Shown here in pieces: positions 5,076-13,806 of a stretch of DNA of 64,000 nt. A program made the translations under genes and the position numbers. Location of the stretch: contig JAJDBR010000109.1 of assembly GCA_029261275.1 (NCBI GenBank), positions 2,627-66,626 on the forward strand. The letters run 5' to 3'. The notes under the pieces were generated by a model. That model was not told where the DNA came from and made no database searches. It worked only from the letters and a program-made list of their open reading frames with translations. This DNA is from Nitrospirales bacterium. Its GTDB lineage: Bacteria > Nitrospirota > Nitrospiria > Nitrospirales > UBA8639. Position 1 is the stretch's first letter; the number at the start of each line of letters is the position of its first letter.

Positions 5076-6839
5076 TTGCCCATGACCATACGAAAAACTT
5101 TTCGACTCGTCCTCATCAAGCCTTCGCATTATGATGATGATGGCTATGTGATCCAATGGCTACGGTCTTCGATTCCTTCCAACACCTTAGCCGCCCTCTA
5201 TGGCTTAGTTCTCGATTGTGCCAACCGGCACGTTCTGGGAGAAGATGTTGAGTTAGTCGTTGAGCCTTACGATGAAACGAACACGGTGCTGCCCATCAAA
5301 ACAATCATTCAATCCATTAAGGAATCGGGGAATGGACTGGTCGGATTGGTTGGAGTACAAACGAATCAATTTCCTCATGCGGTAGATTTGGCCGATCATT
5401 TCCTCCAGGCCAATATTCCCGTGGCGATTGGTGGGTTTCATATTAGTGGTTGCTTAGCCATGCTGCCTACCTTACCACCTGACATACAGCAAGCCATGGA
5501 CAAGGGGATTACCCTGTATGCAGGAGAAGCCGAAGAACATCTGGACGTATTTCTCCAAGACGCCTATCACCATCGACTCAAACCGCTCTACAACGTGATG
5601 GACCAACTCCCCAGTCTCCAAGAAGCCCCGTCGCCTTTTCTGCCCGCCCACATTATTAACAAGACACTTCGTCGCCTCACGAGTTTTGATGCCGGCCGCG
5701 GCTGCCCATTCCAATGTAGCTTTTGTACGATTATCAATGTGCAAGGTCGAAAATCGCGTTGGCGGTCGGCAGAGGACATTGAAGCCCTCATTCGAGCGAA
5801 TGTACAGCAAGGTATCCGTCGGTTTTTTATTACTGACGATGACTTTGCACGAAATAAGGACTGGGAAGCCATTTTAGATCGCTTCATTGCGATGCGTGAA
5901 AACGAACACCTTCCCATTTCGTTTACGATTCAAGTTGATACACTCTGTCATAAAATTCCAAGATTTATTGAAAAATGCGCCAGAGCAGGATGTCGCAATG
6001 TGTTCATTGGGTTAGAAAACATCAACCCCGACTCGTTGGTTGGTGCAAAAAAGCGTCAGAATAAAATTTGGGAATACCGCAAAATGGCCCAAATGTGGAA
6101 AGACCATGGCTGCACCACCGTCGCCGGCTACATCCTGGGATTTCCTGGCGACACACCAGAAACCATTGCTCGTGATATCGAAATTATCAAAAATGAAATA
6201 CCGTTAGATTGTCTGGAGTTTTTCTGTCTTACGCCACTGCCAGGGTCAGAAGATCATAAGGTACTTGACCAGCAGGGTGTGTTGATGGAGCCAGATATGA
6301 ATTTCTATGATTTAGAACATGTCACAGTCACCCACCCCATTATGTCCAAAGAGATCTGGCAACGAGTCTACCAAACAGCTTGGAGACAATATTACACACC
6401 AGAACATGTGGAAACAGTGATTCGCCGAGCTGCTGCCAAAGGGCAAAATATTAACAAGGTGACCTCTTTGCTCACATGGTTTTATGGCTGCACGACCATT
6501 GAAGGTGTACACCCACTGGAAGGTGGCATCTTTCGCCGCAAAATTCGAGCCTTGCGACGTCCAACCCTTCCACGAGAAAACCCGCTATGGTTTTACCCAA
6601 AGCGGGTTTTTGAAGTATGGCAAACAGGGCTTAAATGGGGACTGTTGGTCTGGAGGTTTCAATCAATTTTAAAACAGGTCAAGGCTGACCCAAACAAAAA
6701 CGCCTATACCGACCTCGCCTTGACTCCCGTTCTCGAACAAGAAGATGAAGACTTCGGACTTATGCAAGTTTTTTCAAGCCACATTCCTGTTTCTCAATTC
6801 ACCCACCCCAGCAAATCCAGCACAGCGTCCGCGTCCTAA
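5076..6839 (+). CDS. Cobalamin-binding-domain radical SAM protein
   Basis: CPFQCSFC (CxxxCxxC), GRGCP, FITDDDF, GLENINP, GYILGFP; N-terminal B12-binding-like region (GVQTNQFPHA...GGFHISG). Confidence 0.88.
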   Translation: MPMTIRKTFRLVLIKPSHYDDDGYVIQWLRSSIPSNTLAALYGLVLDCANRHVLGEDVELVVEPYDETNTVLPIKTIIQSIKESGNGLVGLVGVQTNQFPHAVDLADHFLQANIPVAIGGFHISGCLAMLPTLPPDIQQAMDKGITLYAGEAEEHLDVFLQDAYHHRLKPLYNVMDQLPSLQEAPSPFLPAHIINKTLRRLTSFDAGRGCPFQCSFCTIINVQGRKSRWRSAEDIEALIRANVQQGIRRFFITDDDFARNKDWEAILDRFIAMRENEHLPISFTIQVDTLCHKIPRFIEKCARAGCRNVFIGLENINPDSLVGAKKRQNKIWEYRKMAQMWKDHGCTTVAGYILGFPGDTPETIARDIEIIKNEIPLDCLEFFCLTPLPGSEDHKVLDQQGVLMEPDMNFYDLEHVTVTHPIMSKEIWQRVYQTAWRQYYTPEHVETVIRRAAAKGQNINKVTSLLTWFYGCTTIEGVHPLEGGIFRRKIRALRRPTLPRENPLWFYPKRVFEVWQTGLKWGLLVWRFQSILKQVKADPNKNAYTDLALTPVLEQEDEDFGLMQVFSSHIPVSQFTHPSKSSTASAS

Positions 6840-7707
6840 CGTTAATTGTCAATTGTTGAGACTGCCCCTGGCTCAGGAAGAGCTATACCCTGAAATAGCT
6901 TGACCGCATTATCCCCGTATTTCTGTCCTTTCTTAATGGCTTTTCGGTTATGGATTTTTTTCCATTCCTAAATCCCTGTAAAATACAGGGGCCTTTATTG
7001 TGACGAATGAAAAGAATAGGACAGAGCAAAAAACAAAGAGGAAGGCTAGTGGAAGGCAAAGGGGAATTCTGTTGGAGCGAGCGAAGGATGCGTCGTTGTT
7101 TTGAATATACCTTTCTAGCAAGAGATTCTTGAATTTCCTAGTGCTGTTGTAATGGAATAACTTCTCCCAAACCTACTTGCCGTATTACGGCATGAGGTTG
7201 GACTACCCGCCACGACTGAAAACTCCACACAAGATATCCAGATTTTCATATTGTCCTTCTTGCCTCTCTTACTCATGGAGTATGCGCAAGGCTTATCCAT
7301 TTTAAGCATTTGCTCTTCATACGGTATTTTTAGCTTCCTTCAAAACACGAGGACCATACATCGACGATTCCTCTGGTTTCATTAGGAATATCCTCTCATG
7401 CAGGCACCATCTGGCCTACAACAACGAATAATTTTTGTGACCCTCATGATGAATGATAGACAGAAACGAGAAAACGTTTGGAGCCAAAATGTCTCGAATG
7501 GTGGGCGAACTTTTAATTCTGCGCTTTGCGTTGAATAATAGCAACCCCCTACACATTGACTCTTTCTACTATTTATTGATTGTGATAGAACCTTTATTGA
7601 GATGAGGAAAATACTGCAAAATCATACTATTGTATACATGTTCGGATTTATGTTTTTTATGTCTGTTACCCAACAATTGGTTGGGCATCTCACAAAGGAG
7701 GGTGATT

Positions 7708-8139
7708 ATGACTGAAGGTACTGCAGGCATGTTTAGTGGGCATAATACTAAGGGGCGTGTGCTCATTGTGGATGATGAGCCGGATGTCCGCAAGGTCATC
7801 AAGATGGCTTTAACCAAGGCCGGCTACGACGTGATTGAAGCCGAAGATGGCGAAAAAGCCATTGCTGCCATCAAAGAAGGCGAGAACCCCCTTCTTTTGG
7901 ATGTCATTATTTCGGACATTCGCATGCCAAAGGTCAATGGAGTAGAAGCCATTAACTATTTCCAACAACAATGGCCTAGTGTTCCATTAATTGTTTTGAC
8001 CGGGTTCCCAGATATGGAAATGGCCACTGGGTTTATCAAAAAAGGCATCGTGGATTATCTTGTCAAACCAGTCGAAAAGGAAAAACTGACTGCGGCCGTG
8101 GCCAAAGCGATTGATCAGAGAGAAATTACTCGTTTGTAA
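7708..8139 (+). CDS. Single-domain response regulator (REC only)
   Basis: IVDDE, ISDIRMP phosphoacceptor, VLTG, VKP; SD AAGGAGG precedes ATG 7708. Confidence 0.93.
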   Translation: MTEGTAGMFSGHNTKGRVLIVDDEPDVRKVIKMALTKAGYDVIEAEDGEKAIAAIKEGENPLLLDVIISDIRMPKVNGVEAINYFQQQWPSVPLIVLTGFPDMEMATGFIKKGIVDYLVKPVEKEKLTAAVAKAIDQREITRL

Positions 8140-8223
8140 CGGGTCTCATTTCCGGTGTTTTTAGCTTGCGCTCAGGGCGCTGTGGGAACAGCACTCAATG
8201 GGGAAAAAGCTCCAAAATTTCCT

Positions 8224-8252
8224 AAAGCCCTATCAAGTTTTGGTAGGGCTTT
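8224..8252 (+). terminator. Intrinsic terminator after REC gene
   Basis: AAAGCCCTATCAA-GTT-TTGGTAGGGCTTT 13-bp stem (one G-U pair) followed by ATACTTTATTT. Confidence 0.7.
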
Positions 8253-8350
8253 ATACTTTATTTGAAATTGAATCCGTTCGATCGGTACACGGGCTTCCCC
8301 CGACCCTGGGTCCAACTCAATGACATTCACCACAATAAGAATAAGGCAAC

Positions 8351-9433
8351 ATGACACATACCCAAGGAGAAACTCCTCTCGTGTCCGAACGGCAAGCTGA
8401 AACCCAACCACGAATCAATGTGGTCATTCTTGGAGCGGGGAAAGGCGGGAGGGCCTTACTGGAATCCTTCCTTAACTTGCCTAGAATTCACCTTATTGGA
8501 GTTGCTGACAAAGATGAAAAGGCACCAGGGCTCAAACTCGCTCGCCGGCATCACATCCCCACCACTCAAGATGCCCTGCCGCTCATTCAACAACCCGACA
8601 TTCACTTAATTGTGGATGTGACAGGTGATCCATCTTTCTCCCAAAACATTTATCGTCATAAACATCCAAACGCAGAAGTGTTGGGAGGAGCTGCCTCCAA
8701 GGTGCTGTGGGACATCATCCAACATGAATCCCTGATGCAAACGCGATTATTCCAAGCTGAAAAATTGGCGGGCATGGGCACCTTTGCATCCGGCATTGCA
8801 CATGACATCAACAATCCGTTGTACATCATTCTGGCCATGGCCGAAGCTATTCAAGATGAAACGGACACCGCTAGCATCCATCAATATGCAACCAGTATCC
8901 GCGACGCCGCGCAACGCATCCAAACCATTTCTCAAAATATCACTCACTATGCCCGCGCGTCGCAGTCGGAAGAGTCCTTTCCGGTTCCCGTCCAGGAAAC
9001 GCTCGATGAAGCCTTAAAAATCGCGAAGTTTGCGACAAAATTCCATGAAATCACCGTGATCCAAAACTATCATGATCATATCACGATCGATTCCAAGCCT
9101 GAGGAACTTCTGCAAGTGTTTGTCAATCTTATGATCAACGCCATCCATGCAATGGAGAACCAAGGCCTCCTGACACTCACGGCAGAAAACCAAAATGGGG
9201 TGGTTCTAGTATCTATTGCCGATACCGGCAAGGGAATTTCTGCCGAACACTTACCAAAAATTTTCGACCCGTTTTTTACCACAAAGGCGCCAGGAAAAGG
9301 CACGGGCTTGGGCTTGTATAATGTCCGTTCCATCGTGCGAAAATATAAAGGAGAGCTCACCGTAGACAGCCAAGTTGGGAAAGGCACCATCTTCTCCATT
9401 GTTTTCCCATCCGTTGACCCCACTCACAAGTGA
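8351..9433 (+). CDS. Cytoplasmic sensor histidine kinase with N-terminal NAD(P)-binding Rossmann-like domain
   Basis: VVILGAGKGG (GxGxxG) and VADKD; H-box AHDINNP; N-box NLMINA; DTGKG, FFTTK, GTGLGL; no TM helix. Confidence 0.92.
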   Translation: MTHTQGETPLVSERQAETQPRINVVILGAGKGGRALLESFLNLPRIHLIGVADKDEKAPGLKLARRHHIPTTQDALPLIQQPDIHLIVDVTGDPSFSQNIYRHKHPNAEVLGGAASKVLWDIIQHESLMQTRLFQAEKLAGMGTFASGIAHDINNPLYIILAMAEAIQDETDTASIHQYATSIRDAAQRIQTISQNITHYARASQSEESFPVPVQETLDEALKIAKFATKFHEITVIQNYHDHITIDSKPEELLQVFVNLMINAIHAMENQGLLTLTAENQNGVVLVSIADTGKGISAEHLPKIFDPFFTTKAPGKGTGLGLYNVRSIVRKYKGELTVDSQVGKGTIFSIVFPSVDPTHK

Positions 9434-9439
9434 TTTCAT

Positions 9440-11902
9440 ATGAATATGGCCACCACCAGTGAAACCCCTATTAAAGGCAAAAGAGGTCTCACGAAAAAAT
9501 TAGTTCTGTCAATGTTACTTGTGGGCACCCTCCCTCTGCTCATTGGGCTCCTCCTCGCTTTTTACCAGGGAACTCAAAGCATTCAGGAAGTGAACGGAGC
9601 AAGCTTTCAGGCTCTGGCGACAGAAACCGCAAGGAAATTGGATTTCGTGGTTAGCGATGAATTGGCTCAGACCAGACTTCTGACTACAAATCCCGACTTG
9701 ATTCAATTGCTAGAAAAACAACGCGATGCCCTAAGTGAAGTCAGCCAAACAGACCTTGCTCTATTGCTTCAAGAAGAACAAAAAACATGGATGGCCAGAA
9801 ACCCCGACCTGGTCCAACGCATTACTCAGGGGCCCATTGTCCAACCGCTTCGAGAACAGGTAGGGGGAACGTTTGTCGATCCATCGCAACCTATCCCTCT
9901 TATCACCCGATCAGCTACACGCGGATTGTACATTACCGATACCGTCGGCCGTCTCATTGCCAGCGTAGACACCAATCCCTCCTATCTGCATGCCCAAGAA
10001 AAATGGTGGAAAGGCGCCTTTCATAATGGAATAGGCCAACCCTATATCGGCAAAATTGGCTTCAATAAAGGCCTCGGGACCTACACGTTCACACTCGCCC
10101 TTCCGATTATGGATAGCTTGCAGTATAAAACCATCGGTGTGCTTCGCCGAATTTATGATGTAAAAGAGTTCTTCTCGCCTTCTATCGACATTATCCGATT
10201 TGGTAAAACAGGGCATGTCATGCTGATTGATAGCCGTGGGGTAGTGTTAACCTGTCCCATTCTCCCTACGGGAGTGTCCTTAAGTGACAATGAACTTATT
10301 CCCCTTGTCACTCCGATGAAAGCCGGGTGGACATCCGCCCAAACCGACGGGCACGGTGGCCAGGAAACCTCTATTATCGGATATGCCCCCCTGCCAAGCA
10401 TCAGTAGCATCACTCAAGATTCGAATGAACTCGCATGGCATATGTTTGTGTGGCAGTCATCAGAAGAATTATTTGGTCCCATTCAAAACTTTTCTAAATG
10501 GATCACGGGCTTCGGTCTCTTAGGGGTAGGGTTACTAGTCACCTTGGGATACCTAGCGGCCCATCGTATTTCCTCACCAATTCGCCGTCTCCAAGAAGCG
10601 ACTCGCCAGATTGGCCGTGGGGAATTTCATGAACCCATCACCATCAACACAGGGGATGAAATCGAAGAGCTGGCCGAGGAAATTAATCGCATGAAAGAGC
10701 AAATAGAATCAACCGTGACCGGCCTGGAAAGTCAAGTCGAAACAAAATCTCAGGAGGTCAAATACCTCCAAGAATCCACGTCAAAAATTTTAGATGGGGT
10801 GCCTGATCCCGTGATCATGATCGACGCTCAGAAACAGATTGAATACCTTAATCAAGCAACAAGAGAGATGTTGAACTTCAATAATGGCCAAGTGATAGGG
10901 ACTCCATTATTTCAATTGCTTCGGGTGGATCCAACAACACAGAAACGATTACACGATGAAATTCAAAACGTTCAAGCAACGCTTTTGACCACCTCTTCCT
11001 TCCCCAGTCATATTCCGACATCCATCCGTGACCCTTTGGTAGCCACTCACCTGGAGGACTCCCATAGTGATCGTCAAGAACTTCGCCTGAACAATCGGAT
11101 CTATCGGTACCGATGGTTTGCCGTACAAACTGCACCTGATAAAGAGCCATCTGCGGGACTTGTCCTACGAGATTTGACGGAAGAAAGCCTGCTGCAGGAC
11201 AAAATCATTCAGGGGGAAAAAATAGCAAGCCTGGGAGTTCTCAGTGCCGGAATCGGGCATGAACTGAATAACCCGTTGGTCGGGGTTATTGGCTTGGGTG
11301 AAGCCATTCAGGACGAGGCCGAATCCGAAAAAATCAAGGAATACGCGAAAGGCATTATCCAACATGGAAAACGGATGGCATCAGTAGTTCGGGACTTTAC
11401 GGGTCAGATGACCACCCAATTTTTGGATACACAAACTCGCGTCAATATCAATGAGCAATTAGAAAAGGTCCTGTCTGCCACAACAGTCCTATTCACATCC
11501 AGTCATATCACTGTCAATACTCAGTTTGAACCGTTGCCCCCTGTGCAAGCCCAACCTAATGAACTGGGGCAAGCTTTCACCAACATTATCAACAATAGCT
11601 TGCAAGCCATGGAGGAAGGTGGAATGTTGGAAGTCAGCACCGGAATCAAGGACCACGCAATACAGATCGTCATTAAAGACTCAGGAACTGGAATTACCCC
11701 CTCACACTTATCCAAAGTCTTTGATCCTTTTTTCACGACTAAAAGCCAGGGAGAGGGAGCTGGACTGGGCTTAACCATTGCCCATCGCCTGATCACCAAA
11801 GTAGGCGGACAGATGCGTCTGGAAAGTGAAAAGAACCAAGGAACGACTTGTCATATTATTTTCCCTCTTCCATCACCCCAACCTGACACCAAAAAGGAAT
11901 AA
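9440..11902 (+). CDS. Membrane sensor histidine kinase: dCache-like periplasmic domain, HAMP, PAS, HisKA, HATPase
   Basis: Two TM helices, HAMP (ISSPIRRLQ...GDEIEELA), PAS (LDGVPDPVIMID), GHELNNP, FFTTK, GAGLGL. Confidence 0.93.
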   Translation: MNMATTSETPIKGKRGLTKKLVLSMLLVGTLPLLIGLLLAFYQGTQSIQEVNGASFQALATETARKLDFVVSDELAQTRLLTTNPDLIQLLEKQRDALSEVSQTDLALLLQEEQKTWMARNPDLVQRITQGPIVQPLREQVGGTFVDPSQPIPLITRSATRGLYITDTVGRLIASVDTNPSYLHAQEKWWKGAFHNGIGQPYIGKIGFNKGLGTYTFTLALPIMDSLQYKTIGVLRRIYDVKEFFSPSIDIIRFGKTGHVMLIDSRGVVLTCPILPTGVSLSDNELIPLVTPMKAGWTSAQTDGHGGQETSIIGYAPLPSISSITQDSNELAWHMFVWQSSEELFGPIQNFSKWITGFGLLGVGLLVTLGYLAAHRISSPIRRLQEATRQIGRGEFHEPITINTGDEIEELAEEINRMKEQIESTVTGLESQVETKSQEVKYLQESTSKILDGVPDPVIMIDAQKQIEYLNQATREMLNFNNGQVIGTPLFQLLRVDPTTQKRLHDEIQNVQATLLTTSSFPSHIPTSIRDPLVATHLEDSHSDRQELRLNNRIYRYRWFAVQTAPDKEPSAGLVLRDLTEESLLQDKIIQGEKIASLGVLSAGIGHELNNPLVGVIGLGEAIQDEAESEKIKEYAKGIIQHGKRMASVVRDFTGQMTTQFLDTQTRVNINEQLEKVLSATTVLFTSSHITVNTQFEPLPPVQAQPNELGQAFTNIINNSLQAMEEGGMLEVSTGIKDHAIQIVIKDSGTGITPSHLSKVFDPFFTTKSQGEGAGLGLTIAHRLITKVGGQMRLESEKNQGTTCHIIFPLPSPQPDTKKE

Positions 11903-11908
11903 TCCACC

Positions 11909-12511
11909 ATGGAGAGAAAACGGACAAGCCCTCTGGCTCAGGTCAAGACGTTCACATTTGTGACAATTCTACTGGTCAGTTCCAGCCTGTCACTTGAAGC
12001 CGCAAGTAAGATTCCTAGCCAAGGGATTGCTCCCGCCACCGTCTCGGACTATTTGGTTGGCATTATCAAGGCGGACCGACAAGTCTATACGACCCATATC
12101 GTCAAACGAATGCAGGATCAAGGCATCGTACTGGCACAAGAGGACTGGAAAGATAAAAATGCTATTCCCCTACCCGCACAGTTCCTCCACTATTCCAGCA
12201 AAATTGTTGCAGAATCAGGAGTCGGCATTCGATTCCGACTAATCAGCCTTTGGCCTATTTATCGAAAAAATGGTCCTGCCACTCCATTTGAGCGTAAAGG
12301 ATTAGAACAGCTCATCAAGAATCCCAATGTCCCACAACGAGGTAAAGTGGCCACTGGGAAAATGAAATTCTTCCAGTCTATCTATGCGGATAACGCCACA
12401 TCACAAGCTTGTGTCACTTGCCACAATACGCACCCTTTAAGTCCAAAACGGGATTTCAAAGTAGGGGATGTCATGGGAGCAATTGTGATTACCATTCCTT
12501 TGGAAAAGTAA
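11909..12511 (+). CDS. Exported monoheme c-type protein, DUF3365 / Tll0287-like
   Basis: Signal peptide, single CxxCH (CVTCH) near C-terminus, RLISLWPI..KNGP...FE and GDVMGAIVITIP family motifs. Confidence 0.88.
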   Translation: MERKRTSPLAQVKTFTFVTILLVSSSLSLEAASKIPSQGIAPATVSDYLVGIIKADRQVYTTHIVKRMQDQGIVLAQEDWKDKNAIPLPAQFLHYSSKIVAESGVGIRFRLISLWPIYRKNGPATPFERKGLEQLIKNPNVPQRGKVATGKMKFFQSIYADNATSQACVTCHNTHPLSPKRDFKVGDVMGAIVITIPLEK

Positions 12512-12637
12512 CGCGCAAGGGTAGACACGCGCCCAACAAGCGCCGCGATCCCGTACCCTAGAAAAACACTTCGTTGACAATCTTCTCAGTGTCCGTACTA
12601 GACAATCCCCTTCCTTCTCATGGTTATTCGCTGTCCG

Positions 12638-12785
12638 TTGTGCTGGAGAGTCCCGGAAAATATACCGTTATCCCCTGAGTTCCACCTTGAACGTGTAGGC
12701 CTTATGGTTGCCAACAACGGTGGCGCCCTTCGGGACTCGCCAAGCAACAAGCTCGCTTGCCGGAATGAAACCCGGTTTCTTTCGC
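12638..12785 (+). ncRNA. Candidate structured RNA element (unclassified); strand uncertain
   Basis: 10-bp stem 12648-57/12729-38 with outer and inner helices, an alternative C(UUCG)G hairpin, a terminator-like hairpin plus T-tract at 12759-12783, and TTGACA at 12574; lies between convergent genes. Confidence 0.35.
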
Positions 12786-13050
12786 ACAAGTCCATAACTT
12801 TCCATTTACGTCATTAAACTAGACACAGGCCATGCCCCTCGACGAACTCAGAAGCCTTTTAGAACACCTATCGTCATTGAGTGGGAATTATTACCTGGGG
12901 TATGCAAAAAGGTTCCCGCCTCATACTACGAAAATGACGGGAAGGAAGGAAGGAAGAAGGAAGAGATATGTCTTAACAACATTTGAACGATTCTTTGCAC
13001 CACTAGGCTGTGATCTCTGCGAAAAAGAAAGAATGTCATTTCAAGAAGTG

Positions 13051-13074
13051 CCCCCCGCCGAATCCGGCGGGAGA
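13051..13074 (-). terminator. GC-rich hairpin downstream of the YceI gene
   Basis: CCCGCCG/CGGCGGG stem, 4-nt loop, about 85 nt past the YceI stop; weak T tail. Confidence 0.55.
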
Positions 13075-13158
13075 GCCCTCTATGAAGAGTGGAAGACAGA
13101 GATAGGAAATAGTAGGAAAAGTCTTATCACTTCTCTCGGTTCGGGAAAAAAACCAACG

Positions 13159-13806
13159 TCAATGCTTCACCTTTTCGATTTTCTTTTCTTTGATGACTTC
13201 AATCTCCAACTGAAGCTTGACATCATCACCCACCATCAATCCCCCATTATCCAACAATTTACTAAATTTCATCCCAAAGTCTTTGCGATTCAACGTACCT
13301 TCGGCAGTGAACCCGGCTCGTGTATTCCCCCACGGATCTTGAGCCACTCCGTTAAACGTTCCAACTAATGTGAGTTCCTTGGTGATGCCTAGCAATGTAA
13401 AATCACCAATCGCCGTATATTGATCACCAGACTTAGTATAGTTTTTCATTTTATAGGTCATCGTTGGAAATGTTTTCACATCAAAAAAGTCAGCACTCCT
13501 CAAGTGATCGTCTCGTTTTTGATGATCCGTCGTCACTGAGGCCGTTTGAATCACGGCTTCAAATGTTTTAAATTCCTGCTTCTCAACATCCATTTCCACT
13601 GTACCGGAATACTCGGTAAATTTACCTTTGGTTTTGGACACCACCATGTGGACGGCCTCAAAACTAAGAGTCGTATGATCTTTGTCTAAATTCCATTTGG
13701 ACATTTCGGCGACAGCGATAGCTCCCACACCCAGGCCCAAACAACACACGACGCCAATAAACATGAACCATTTCATCATTCTCATTACGTCACCTCCTAT
13801 GATCAA
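13159..13806 (-). CDS. YceI-family polyisoprenoid-binding periplasmic protein
   Basis: Signal peptide; W.LDKDHT, RDDHLRSADFFD..FP, GFTAEGTLNRKDFG, GDDVKL. True start may be 13782 or 13776. Confidence 0.93.
   Translation of the reverse strand: MIIGGDVMRMMKWFMFIGVVCCLGLGVGAIAVAEMSKWNLDKDHTTLSFEAVHMVVSKTKGKFTEYSGTVEMDVEKQEFKTFEAVIQTASVTTDHQKRDDHLRSADFFDVKTFPTMTYKMKNYTKSGDQYTAIGDFTLLGITKELTLVGTFNGVAQDPWGNTRAGFTAEGTLNRKDFGMKFSKLLDNGGLMVGDDVKLQLEIEVIKEKKIEKVKH

Follow-up and report, generated by a model that had tools for sequence, protein, structure and literature searches.

A co-inherited signalling unit of two histidine kinases, a secreted haem c protein and a single-domain receiver in Nitrospirales

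Our analyses leave us highly confident that four neighbouring genes in a 64,000-nucleotide stretch of DNA from a Nitrospirales bacterium (contig JAJDBR010000109.1 of assembly GCA_029261275.1; the whole stretch is called the window below) form one real, co-inherited signalling unit. In gene order, they encode a single-domain response regulator (REC), a soluble histidine kinase headed by a Rossmann-type domain (HK1), a membrane histidine kinase with a periplasmic dCache domain (HK2) and a secreted monohaem c protein. The four-gene order is found in dozens of species-level genomes with differing flanks, far beyond what chance could produce. For the working of the unit we put forward, more tentatively, a branched two-component system in which HK1 would read NAD(H), HK2 together with a haem-bearing co-sensor would read the periplasm and both kinases would set one receiver; taken in full, this mechanism is a serious possibility that we stop short of calling probable.

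All four genes lie on the forward strand. REC (7708–8139, 143 residues) matches the Pfam family Response_reg with 102.7 bits and contains no other Pfam domain; HK1 (8351–9433, 360 residues) matches HisKA and HATPase_c with 47.6 and 86.6 bits, respectively; HK2 (9440–11902, 820 residues) matches dCache_1 (54.8 bits), HAMP (57), PAS (34.5), HisKA (41.9) and HATPase_c (82.1); and the last gene (11909–12511, 200 residues) encodes a stand-alone, DUF3365/Tll0287-like protein that scores 66.9 bits against PF11845, a family with a cut-off of 24.1. The junctions between HK1 and HK2 (TGA-tttcat-ATG) and between HK2 and the haem gene (TAA-tccacc-ATG) are exactly 6 nucleotides long, and a hairpin (8223–8253) stands between REC and HK1. 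An earlier reading made from the sequence alone had proposed this gene set with its hairpin and 6-nucleotide junctions, and the open reading frames, the Pfam matches and the junction sequences confirm it. The residues of two-component signalling are present throughout: the H box and the ATP-binding boxes in both kinases, with the N box of HK2 recognised by eye, and the D-D-D-T-K set in REC. NCBIfam offers a specific equivalog for none of the four proteins, the nearest resemblances being to AtoS/ZraS for the kinases and to the receiver part of NtrC/FixJ for REC. An Rfam scan of window positions 6500–13300 gave no match, and a search for sigma-54 promoters found no site near the cluster, the counts being at chance level.

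The evidence for co-inheritance comes from a species-level scan, in which a profile for the HK1 N-terminal domain was run against a single genome of each species. The scan returned 171 relatives; in the best 80 loci, every open reading frame was scored against the window proteins, and 63 of these loci hold an HK1-type kinase. The best 80 loci all belong to Nitrospirota, mostly to Nitrospirales, Nitrospiraceae or Nitrospira. Of the loci among these 63 that could be assessed for a given gene, 57 of 59 have REC ahead of HK1, 55 of 60 have HK2 behind it and 42 of 46 have the haem gene after HK2; a remnant and broken contigs are among the exceptions to this last count. The spacing is tight, with a median of −4 nucleotides between HK1 and HK2 (at most 20 nucleotides in 49 of 51 loci) and an overlap of 4 or 49 nucleotides between HK2 and the haem gene in most loci (at most 20 nucleotides in 39 of 41); the genes are probably co-translated. 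A synteny survey was the check that the sequence-only reading had named for its co-transcribed-looking unit, and in these Nitrospirota loci the genes are indeed co-conserved. The surroundings are not: among the 23 loci with full 9-kb flanks, REC, HK1, HK2 and the haem gene are the only gene families common to most, and we found no conserved flanking gene, no second regulator and no respiratory or detoxifying gene. Close homologues of the haem protein on long contigs likewise show the REC–HK1–HK2–haem order followed by differing downstream genes. The module was not found outside Nitrospirales, where the nearest relative of the haem protein, a tandem double sCache_heme protein of Nitrospinaceae, does not stand beside kinases.

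Of the three partners, REC is the most constant companion of HK1, and it persists in lineages without HK2 and the haem gene; the module is a core pair of REC and HK1 plus an add-on pair of HK2 and the haem protein that is never seen without the core. HK2 orthologues, sharing at least 49% identity, occurred in all five HK1-bearing genomes tested, always adjoining HK1, and in none of the 11 tested genomes that lack HK1. The latter hold only a paralogue of about 1070 residues and about 27% identity, which the HK1-bearing genomes have too. The lineages with REC and HK1 alone are few (L036, L061, L081 and L083) and form a clade of their own; given such pairs, HK1 and REC would be self-sufficient, and HK2 could therefore use another regulator. 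A rival explanation takes this further, holding that HK1 and REC are a complete system, that HK2 and the haem protein are an independent sensor served by a regulator encoded elsewhere and that their adjacency reflects co-regulation only. It can also point to locus L092, where an NtrC-type regulator is inserted ahead of a diverged HK2-like gene, and to the hairpin that parts REC from the kinases. We nevertheless consider it distinctly improbable, since HK2 orthologues were never without HK1 in the 16 genomes tested, the two kinase genes overlap by 4 nucleotides in most loci, the flanks contain no conserved second regulator and the dimerisation and histidine phosphotransfer (DHp) helices of HK1 and HK2, both containing EAIQDE, are reciprocal best matches in the genome. 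These same four observations are the indirect grounds on which we propose that both kinases converge on one receiver.

The catalytic residues D22, D23, D70, T98 and K120 of REC are intact, with the phospho-acceptor D70 encoded at 7915–7917, and its start codon is preceded at a distance of 7 nucleotides by the Shine–Dalgarno sequence AAGGAGG. The gap from REC to HK1 is more variable than the later junctions (median, 98 nucleotides; range, −14 to 421) and in the window contains the hairpin, found by a hairpin scan and by comparison with relatives: the arms TAAAGCCCTATC and GGTAGGGCTTTA enclose a loop, form a 14-bp stem and are followed by a U-rich, interrupted tail. Arms of the form AAGCCCTATC and GATAGGGCTT stand at the same position in nine distinct related genomes (10 locus identifiers, L011 and L017 being one genome), the rest of the spacer being unalignable among relatives; the window copy departs from the consensus by one change, with the pairing kept by a G·U wobble. 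Other lineages have a different GC-rich hairpin at the same site. The consensus palindrome has no other copy in the genome, the window's own variant lying outside the search pattern, so that copies of that variant elsewhere are not covered. As an observation on its own, the arms agree in every letter between genomes with protein identities of only about 57–75%; the sites are 8223–8253 in the window, 4330–4354 in L009, 4365–4388 in L010 and 8887–8910 in L017, with further copies in L019, L021, L023 and L026–L028.

The scan called a terminator in those copies where a U-tract follows the hairpin, and the element probably acts as an intrinsic terminator or attenuator between REC and the kinase operon. 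On the simplest reading, it lets the receiver exceed the kinases in amount. Such a role alone does not explain the exact conservation of both arms: a plain terminator would tolerate compensatory changes, and a protein may therefore recognise the structure, either as an RNA hairpin or as a DNA palindrome. The sequence-only reading had seen REC as the sole regulator nearby, consisting of a receiver only and set off from the kinases by a terminator. The Response_reg-only content and the conserved hairpin bear this out; the loose attachment that it implied does not hold, REC being upstream of HK1 nearly everywhere.

HK1 contains neither a hydrophobic segment nor a cysteine. Its phosphorylatable histidine is H151 (8801–8803), and its N, G1, F and G2 boxes were matched by pattern. 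The N-terminal domain spans residues ~21–112 (8411–8686) and includes the loop GAGKGG (8432–8449) and D53. In an AlphaFold2 (AF2) model built on a 45-sequence alignment, with a predicted local distance difference test (pLDDT) score of 89, residues 21–112 adopt a five-strand Rossmann fold, short and without a catalytic half, which a single helix (113–139) connects to the DHp domain, with the HATPase domain following. The top Foldseek matches of the domain are NAD domains: those of the acetaldehyde dehydrogenase DmpF (1nvm_B, E 1.5e-5), of GFO/IDH/MocA enzymes and of homoserine dehydrogenases. In the family alignment, G28, G30, G32 and G33 of the glycine-rich loop are invariant together with V90, T91 and W120, and D53, placed right after β2, is kept in at least 90% of the sequences. 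The domain thus combines the β-α-β fold, the GxGxxG loop and the acidic residue ending β2 of NAD-type Rossmann domains, and some of its homologues match PF01408, PF01113 or PF03447. In Rossmann folds, an acidic residue at this position holds the hydroxyl groups of the adenine ribose and gives a preference for NAD(H) over NADP(H). The earlier view of HK1 as a cytoplasmic kinase with a nucleotide-binding type of input is borne out by the Rossmann model, the Foldseek matches and the conserved glycines; the modelled fold supports a dinucleotide-binding input, whose most likely ligand is NAD(H).

The same domain was found in three architectures: at the head of HisKA kinases such as HK1, at the head of HisKA_3 kinases and as an insertion in receivers. 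The window's own genome provides an example of the second, a HisKA_3 kinase (contig C93 5541–6686; locus L013 1414–2559) headed by a copy with 35% identity and succeeded, as the next open reading frame, by a NarL/LuxR-type DNA-binding regulator (L013 2441–3223); we checked 13 other Nitrospirota genomes and saw such a paralogue in 12 of them. The third consists of orphan proteins of about 265 residues in which the domain sits in the β4–α4 loop of the receiver. In these fusions, the receiver halves share 47% and 54% identity with the window REC, and the insert shares 47% with HK1 residues 21–142. Fusions were recorded as P0232, P0212, P0177 and P0186 and at loci L014–L016, L032, L038–L042, L045, L047, L056, L063, L086 and L095; their genes have no conserved neighbours, so that their context offers no clue to the output. 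An HK1-type gene is missing in 7 of 10 fusion-bearing genomes, and two genomes of the window's own genus carry the fusion instead of the four-gene module. Across 301 genomes of the phylum, 103 contain a relative of the domain, among them all those listed for the window's order and class. Because it heads a HisKA_3 kinase and sits inside REC-like proteins, the domain appears from its distribution to behave as a portable signalling module. A side observation is that other classes of the phylum (G227, G127, G277, G103, G185 and G167) have a Rossmann-type domain with 36–44% identity inside frames of about 1100–1150 residues.

The fusions are also what gives weight to a different interpretation of HK1, namely that the Rossmann-like domain is no NAD(H) sensor, that it binds another nucleotide or provides a docking or dimerisation surface for REC and that HK1 is a kinase under feedback control by REC. 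The insertion of the same domain inside a closely related REC, and the replacement of REC–HK1 by the fusion in many genomes, two of them of the same genus, suggest that receiver and Rossmann domain act on each other, and the domain is indeed short, with five strands and no catalytic half. Yet the glycine-rich loop and the Asp ending β2 are kept in all three architectures, which would be difficult to account for if the domain bound no dinucleotide, and in every one of them, the C-terminal helix of the Rossmann domain leads into a signalling helix, as it does in input domains. We therefore judge this interpretation quite unlikely and keep to a putative NAD(H) input.

The input of HK2 lies on the other side of the membrane. 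The protein consists of a first transmembrane segment (TM1, ~19–45), a periplasmic dCache_1 domain (47–308), a second segment (TM2, 354–374), HAMP (373–423), PAS (448–~520), HisKA and HATPase domains; by hydropathy, the two membrane segments flank a periplasmic domain of about 308 residues, and no CxxCH is present. H607 is encoded at 11258–11260. Pattern matching identified the G1, F and G2 boxes but missed the N box, NIINNSLQAM, which was read by eye. The placement of dCache_1 between two membrane segments upholds the previous claim that HK2 senses the periplasm, a role that we regard as supported. A PDB sequence search found no close solved relative of the sensor domain. We rejected the amino-acid-binding dCache motif as a candidate, as judged by eye only: HK2 reads EKWW where the motif has RxWY.

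The fourth protein starts with a signal-peptide-like N-terminus (~1–31) and contains a single CVTCH at residues 168–172 (12410–12424) and no other cysteine. The CXXCH is invariant in the family alignment and present in all 46 orthologues examined, and 45 of the 46 are likewise free of cysteines outside it. In the AF2 model (pLDDT 83), a helix at 166–174 lies between the strands 152–162 and 188–197, giving the Cache fold with CXXCH on a short helix before the last strand. Foldseek placed 5b82 (Tll0287) first, with an E-value of 8.7e-6, followed by 3b42 (GSU0935); PDB sequence searches with the protein and its profile did not find Tll0287, which was recovered by the fold search alone. The signal-peptide-like start, the one CVTCH and the PF11845 score agree with the initial description of an exported Tll0287-like monohaem protein. 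By sequence, it is an sCache_heme monohaem c protein predicted to bind haem covalently. As the protein has no cysteine outside CXXCH, its sixth haem ligand cannot be a Tll0287-like Cys; Met68, near-invariant and located on the N-terminal helix, could take that place, as the Geobacter domains suggest by analogy. In those, a labile axial Met switches with the redox state and leaves on oxidation (PMC8396549).

The PF11845 family was renamed sCache_heme in two preprints of 2026 (10.64898/2026.02.01.703092; 10.64898/2026.05.25.727664), and the window protein is compared with their classes here. The stand-alone members studied, Tll0287 and a protein of Pseudomonas putida, are His/Cys-ligated and redox-like (Deshpande et al., 10.64898/2026.02.01.703092); a Cys-less member fused to TM-HAMP binds nitric oxide (NO) tightly (10.64898/2026.02.01.703092), and this same receptor acts in trans on a Ser/Thr kinase encoded by a gene of its own (10.64898/2026.05.25.727664). 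For a tree, we took 100 domains out of a pool made up of the top 150 among 3307 relatives and the eight paralogues of the window's genome. All 24 fused forms fell into one clade and the window protein into the other, which contains stand-alone forms only (support 99/95) and in which extra cysteines are scattered and define no group. The protein thus lacks the axial Cys of Tll0287 and of the His/Cys-ligated, redox-like 'Cluster 1', and it shows neither the fusion to TM and signalling modules nor the grouping with fused forms that mark the NO sensors of 'Cluster 2'. It fits neither published class, being stand-alone yet Cys-less. The sequence-only reading had linked the family to NO or sulfide ligand chemistry; without the Tll0287 axial Cys and with the protein in the stand-alone clade rather than among the fused NO sensors, that chemistry is not transferable by homology, and the NO/sulfide reading is weaker than first stated.

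The company kept by the eight paralogues in the window's genome is mixed. Three are the periplasmic domains of two chemoreceptors and one kinase, and two stand-alone copies adjoin signalling genes, one a CHASE3 kinase with an NtrC-type regulator, the other cheR/D/B/A. Two more stand-alone copies (C81 9507–11180 and C82 866–2554) each adjoin a conserved secreted protein of about 305 residues, for which the C82 neighbour gave only weak CarboxypepD_reg/fn3-like matches; the C81 pair follows a secreted protein of 1643 residues that is multicopper-oxidase-like by eye only. As a side observation, tandem double sCache_heme proteins with a CXXCH in each domain were seen at L097 8001–8999 (Nitrospinaceae, P0031) and as P0241 and P0242, the Nitrospinaceae protein outside any signalling context.

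One may argue that the haem protein is a passenger of the module, a small periplasmic redox carrier, NO scavenger or other co-expressed product, and that HK2 detects a small molecule directly, in the pocket of its own dCache domain. The stand-alone-only clade, the redox-type roles that Deshpande et al. (10.64898/2026.02.01.703092) assign to stand-alone members, the C81 and C82 paralogues with their secreted, non-signalling neighbours (including the multicopper-oxidase-like one by eye) and the complete, above-threshold dCache_1 of HK2 all speak for this. On the other hand, the haem gene nearly always accompanies HK2, the stop codon of which it overlaps, as is typical of subunits made in a fixed ratio; the protein has no axial Cys of the kind found in the redox-type members studied; and the surroundings of the module contain no conserved gene for respiration or detoxification. 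The passenger role seems to us unlikely, and we return to the haem protein as a putative co-sensor of HK2. The sequence and fold features that it has in common with the family, the five paralogues that belong to or adjoin signalling proteins and the published cases of the Geobacter domains and the Cys-less receptor also speak for a part in sensing.

In the mechanism that we propose, a lineage-specific module of Nitrospirales would connect two kinases to one receiver in a branched two-component system. HK1 would read cytoplasmic NAD(H) through its sole input, the Rossmann domain, and a continuous helix would carry the signal into the phospho-accepting helix bundle. HK2 would be translated together with the secreted Cys-less haem c Cache protein, a detachable co-sensor whose haem state—oxidised or reduced, or occupied by a diatomic ligand such as NO—may alter its engagement of the HK2 sensor domain. 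Both kinases would act as kinase or phosphatase on the upstream-encoded receiver, which would be transcribed as its own unit, ended by the conserved hairpin, and would pass the combined signal on through protein–protein contacts and not through DNA binding. The analysis itself establishes which genes are present, their motifs and domain folds, their co-inheritance and their close spacing; the ligands, the binding of haem protein to kinase, the convergence on the receiver and the output are the parts of this scheme that we infer.

Several points weigh against this mechanism. The REC–HK1 pairs without the add-on and the position of the haem protein in the stand-alone clade were described above. 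In addition, the one stand-alone sCache_heme protein studied behaves like a redox protein and binds NO weakly, although it is Cys-ligated, unlike ours; HK2 has a complete dCache domain of its own together with a cytoplasmic PAS and possibly needs no helper; the DHp match between HK1 and HK2 is modest, at 52 bits, the kinases next in rank scoring 48.5 and 38.1; and no Pfam Rossmann family reaches its cut-off in HK1, GFO_IDH_MocA scoring 21.9 bits against 24.

Each element of the scheme has a counterpart among known systems. Like the window protein, Tll0287 (5B82), the P. putida protein and the P. azotoformans Cache_heme-HAMP receptor belong to PF11845 and are periplasmic, with a single CXXCH on a helix in a Cache fold. 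The first two are Cys/His-ligated, which the window protein is not. The P. azotoformans receptor shares with it the absence of an axial Cys and a separate kinase encoded alongside; the window protein, however, is a soluble protein on its own, without TM or HAMP, and the kinase next to it is a histidine kinase with a dCache domain instead of a Ser/Thr kinase. The published split, by which stand-alone members are of the Cys/His redox type and fused members NO sensors, does not fit it. Geobacter sulfurreducens GSU0582 and GSU0935 (3B47 and 3B42), the latter the second-best fold match, are periplasmic haem c sensors as well, though with the haem domain fused to a chemoreceptor, whereas the window domain is a separate protein. 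H-NOX/HahK and NosP/NahK follow the logic proposed here, in that a histidine kinase is controlled in trans by a stand-alone haem protein whose gene adjoins its own; H-NOX and NosP differ in being cytoplasmic, in binding haem b and in their unrelated folds. LuxP–LuxQ and TorT–TorS provide the case of a secreted partner encoded beside a kinase with a large periplasmic domain (double PAS/Cache-like), of which only the gene coupling is seen here; LuxP and TorT are solute-binding proteins without cofactors, unlike the haem protein. Rex, NmrA and RCK/KTN resemble the HK1 N-domain in that a Rossmann domain without a catalytic half, marked by GxGxxG and an acidic residue behind β2, provides the regulatory input, but none of them is known to be joined to a histidine kinase or receiver. 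Finally, KinA–E acting on Spo0F and DivJ/PleC acting on DivK show several kinases with different inputs sharing one single-domain receiver; the Nitrospirales module differs in that no Hpt or second regulator is encoded with it.

Every part of the module belongs to a known kind, and what appears undescribed in the literature that we searched is threefold: the combination of the four genes, the Rossmann input with its insertion into a receiver and the tie between a Cys-less stand-alone sCache_heme protein and a dCache kinase. We found no description of a histidine kinase with a Rossmann input, and nothing relevant on this module in Nitrospira. The claim that the system was undescribed stands for the four-gene module and fails for the haem family, which the two 2026 preprints have named. 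The setting of a nitrite- or NO-exposed chemolithotroph, also suggested earlier, may apply here, as far as the names of related records, its only basis, can indicate.

The neighbourhood of the module contains little that recurs. Because only the four families are common to most loci with full flanks, we place the radical-SAM gene (5076–6839) outside the unit; it and the mechanosensitive channel upstream of it were considered as members and rejected, being common only to the nearest relatives. About 870 nucleotides (6840–7707) between the radical-SAM gene and REC contain no convincing open reading frame and no Rfam match, and a long spacer 5′ of REC (500–1400 nucleotides) is also kept in relatives. 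On the other side, positions 12512–12830, 3′ of the haem gene, are non-coding and without an Rfam match. A forward-strand frame of 178 residues at 12832–13368, without a family match, overlaps the 3′ end of a YceI-like gene on the reverse strand (13159–13806) and is probably not a real gene.

To our knowledge, little is known of how nitrite oxidisers regulate their metabolism, and the module is among the few signalling units conserved across this group. It is probably one switch through which the cell reads both its internal NAD(H) and the redox or gas state of its periplasm. If our reading is true, the Rossmann NAD(H) sensor would be a new type of kinase input, and the free Cys-less co-sensor of a kinase would be a third use of the haem-Cache domain. 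A bolder version, which we think rather unlikely to hold in both its parts, is that the short Rossmann module is an unrecognised NADH/NAD+ input domain in all three Nitrospirota architectures and that the four-gene module is a redox comparator, weighing the periplasmic cytochrome c/NO state, read by the haem-Cache protein docked on the dCache kinase, against cytoplasmic NAD(H). Nitrite oxidisers must make NADH by reverse electron flow, and given this, such a comparison of cytochrome c or NO with the NAD(H) balance would matter to them. All four proteins are small enough for direct biochemistry, and the mechanism, if true, would provide a testable link between the periplasmic and the cytoplasmic redox state in the organisms behind nitrification in the ocean, in soil and in wastewater plants.

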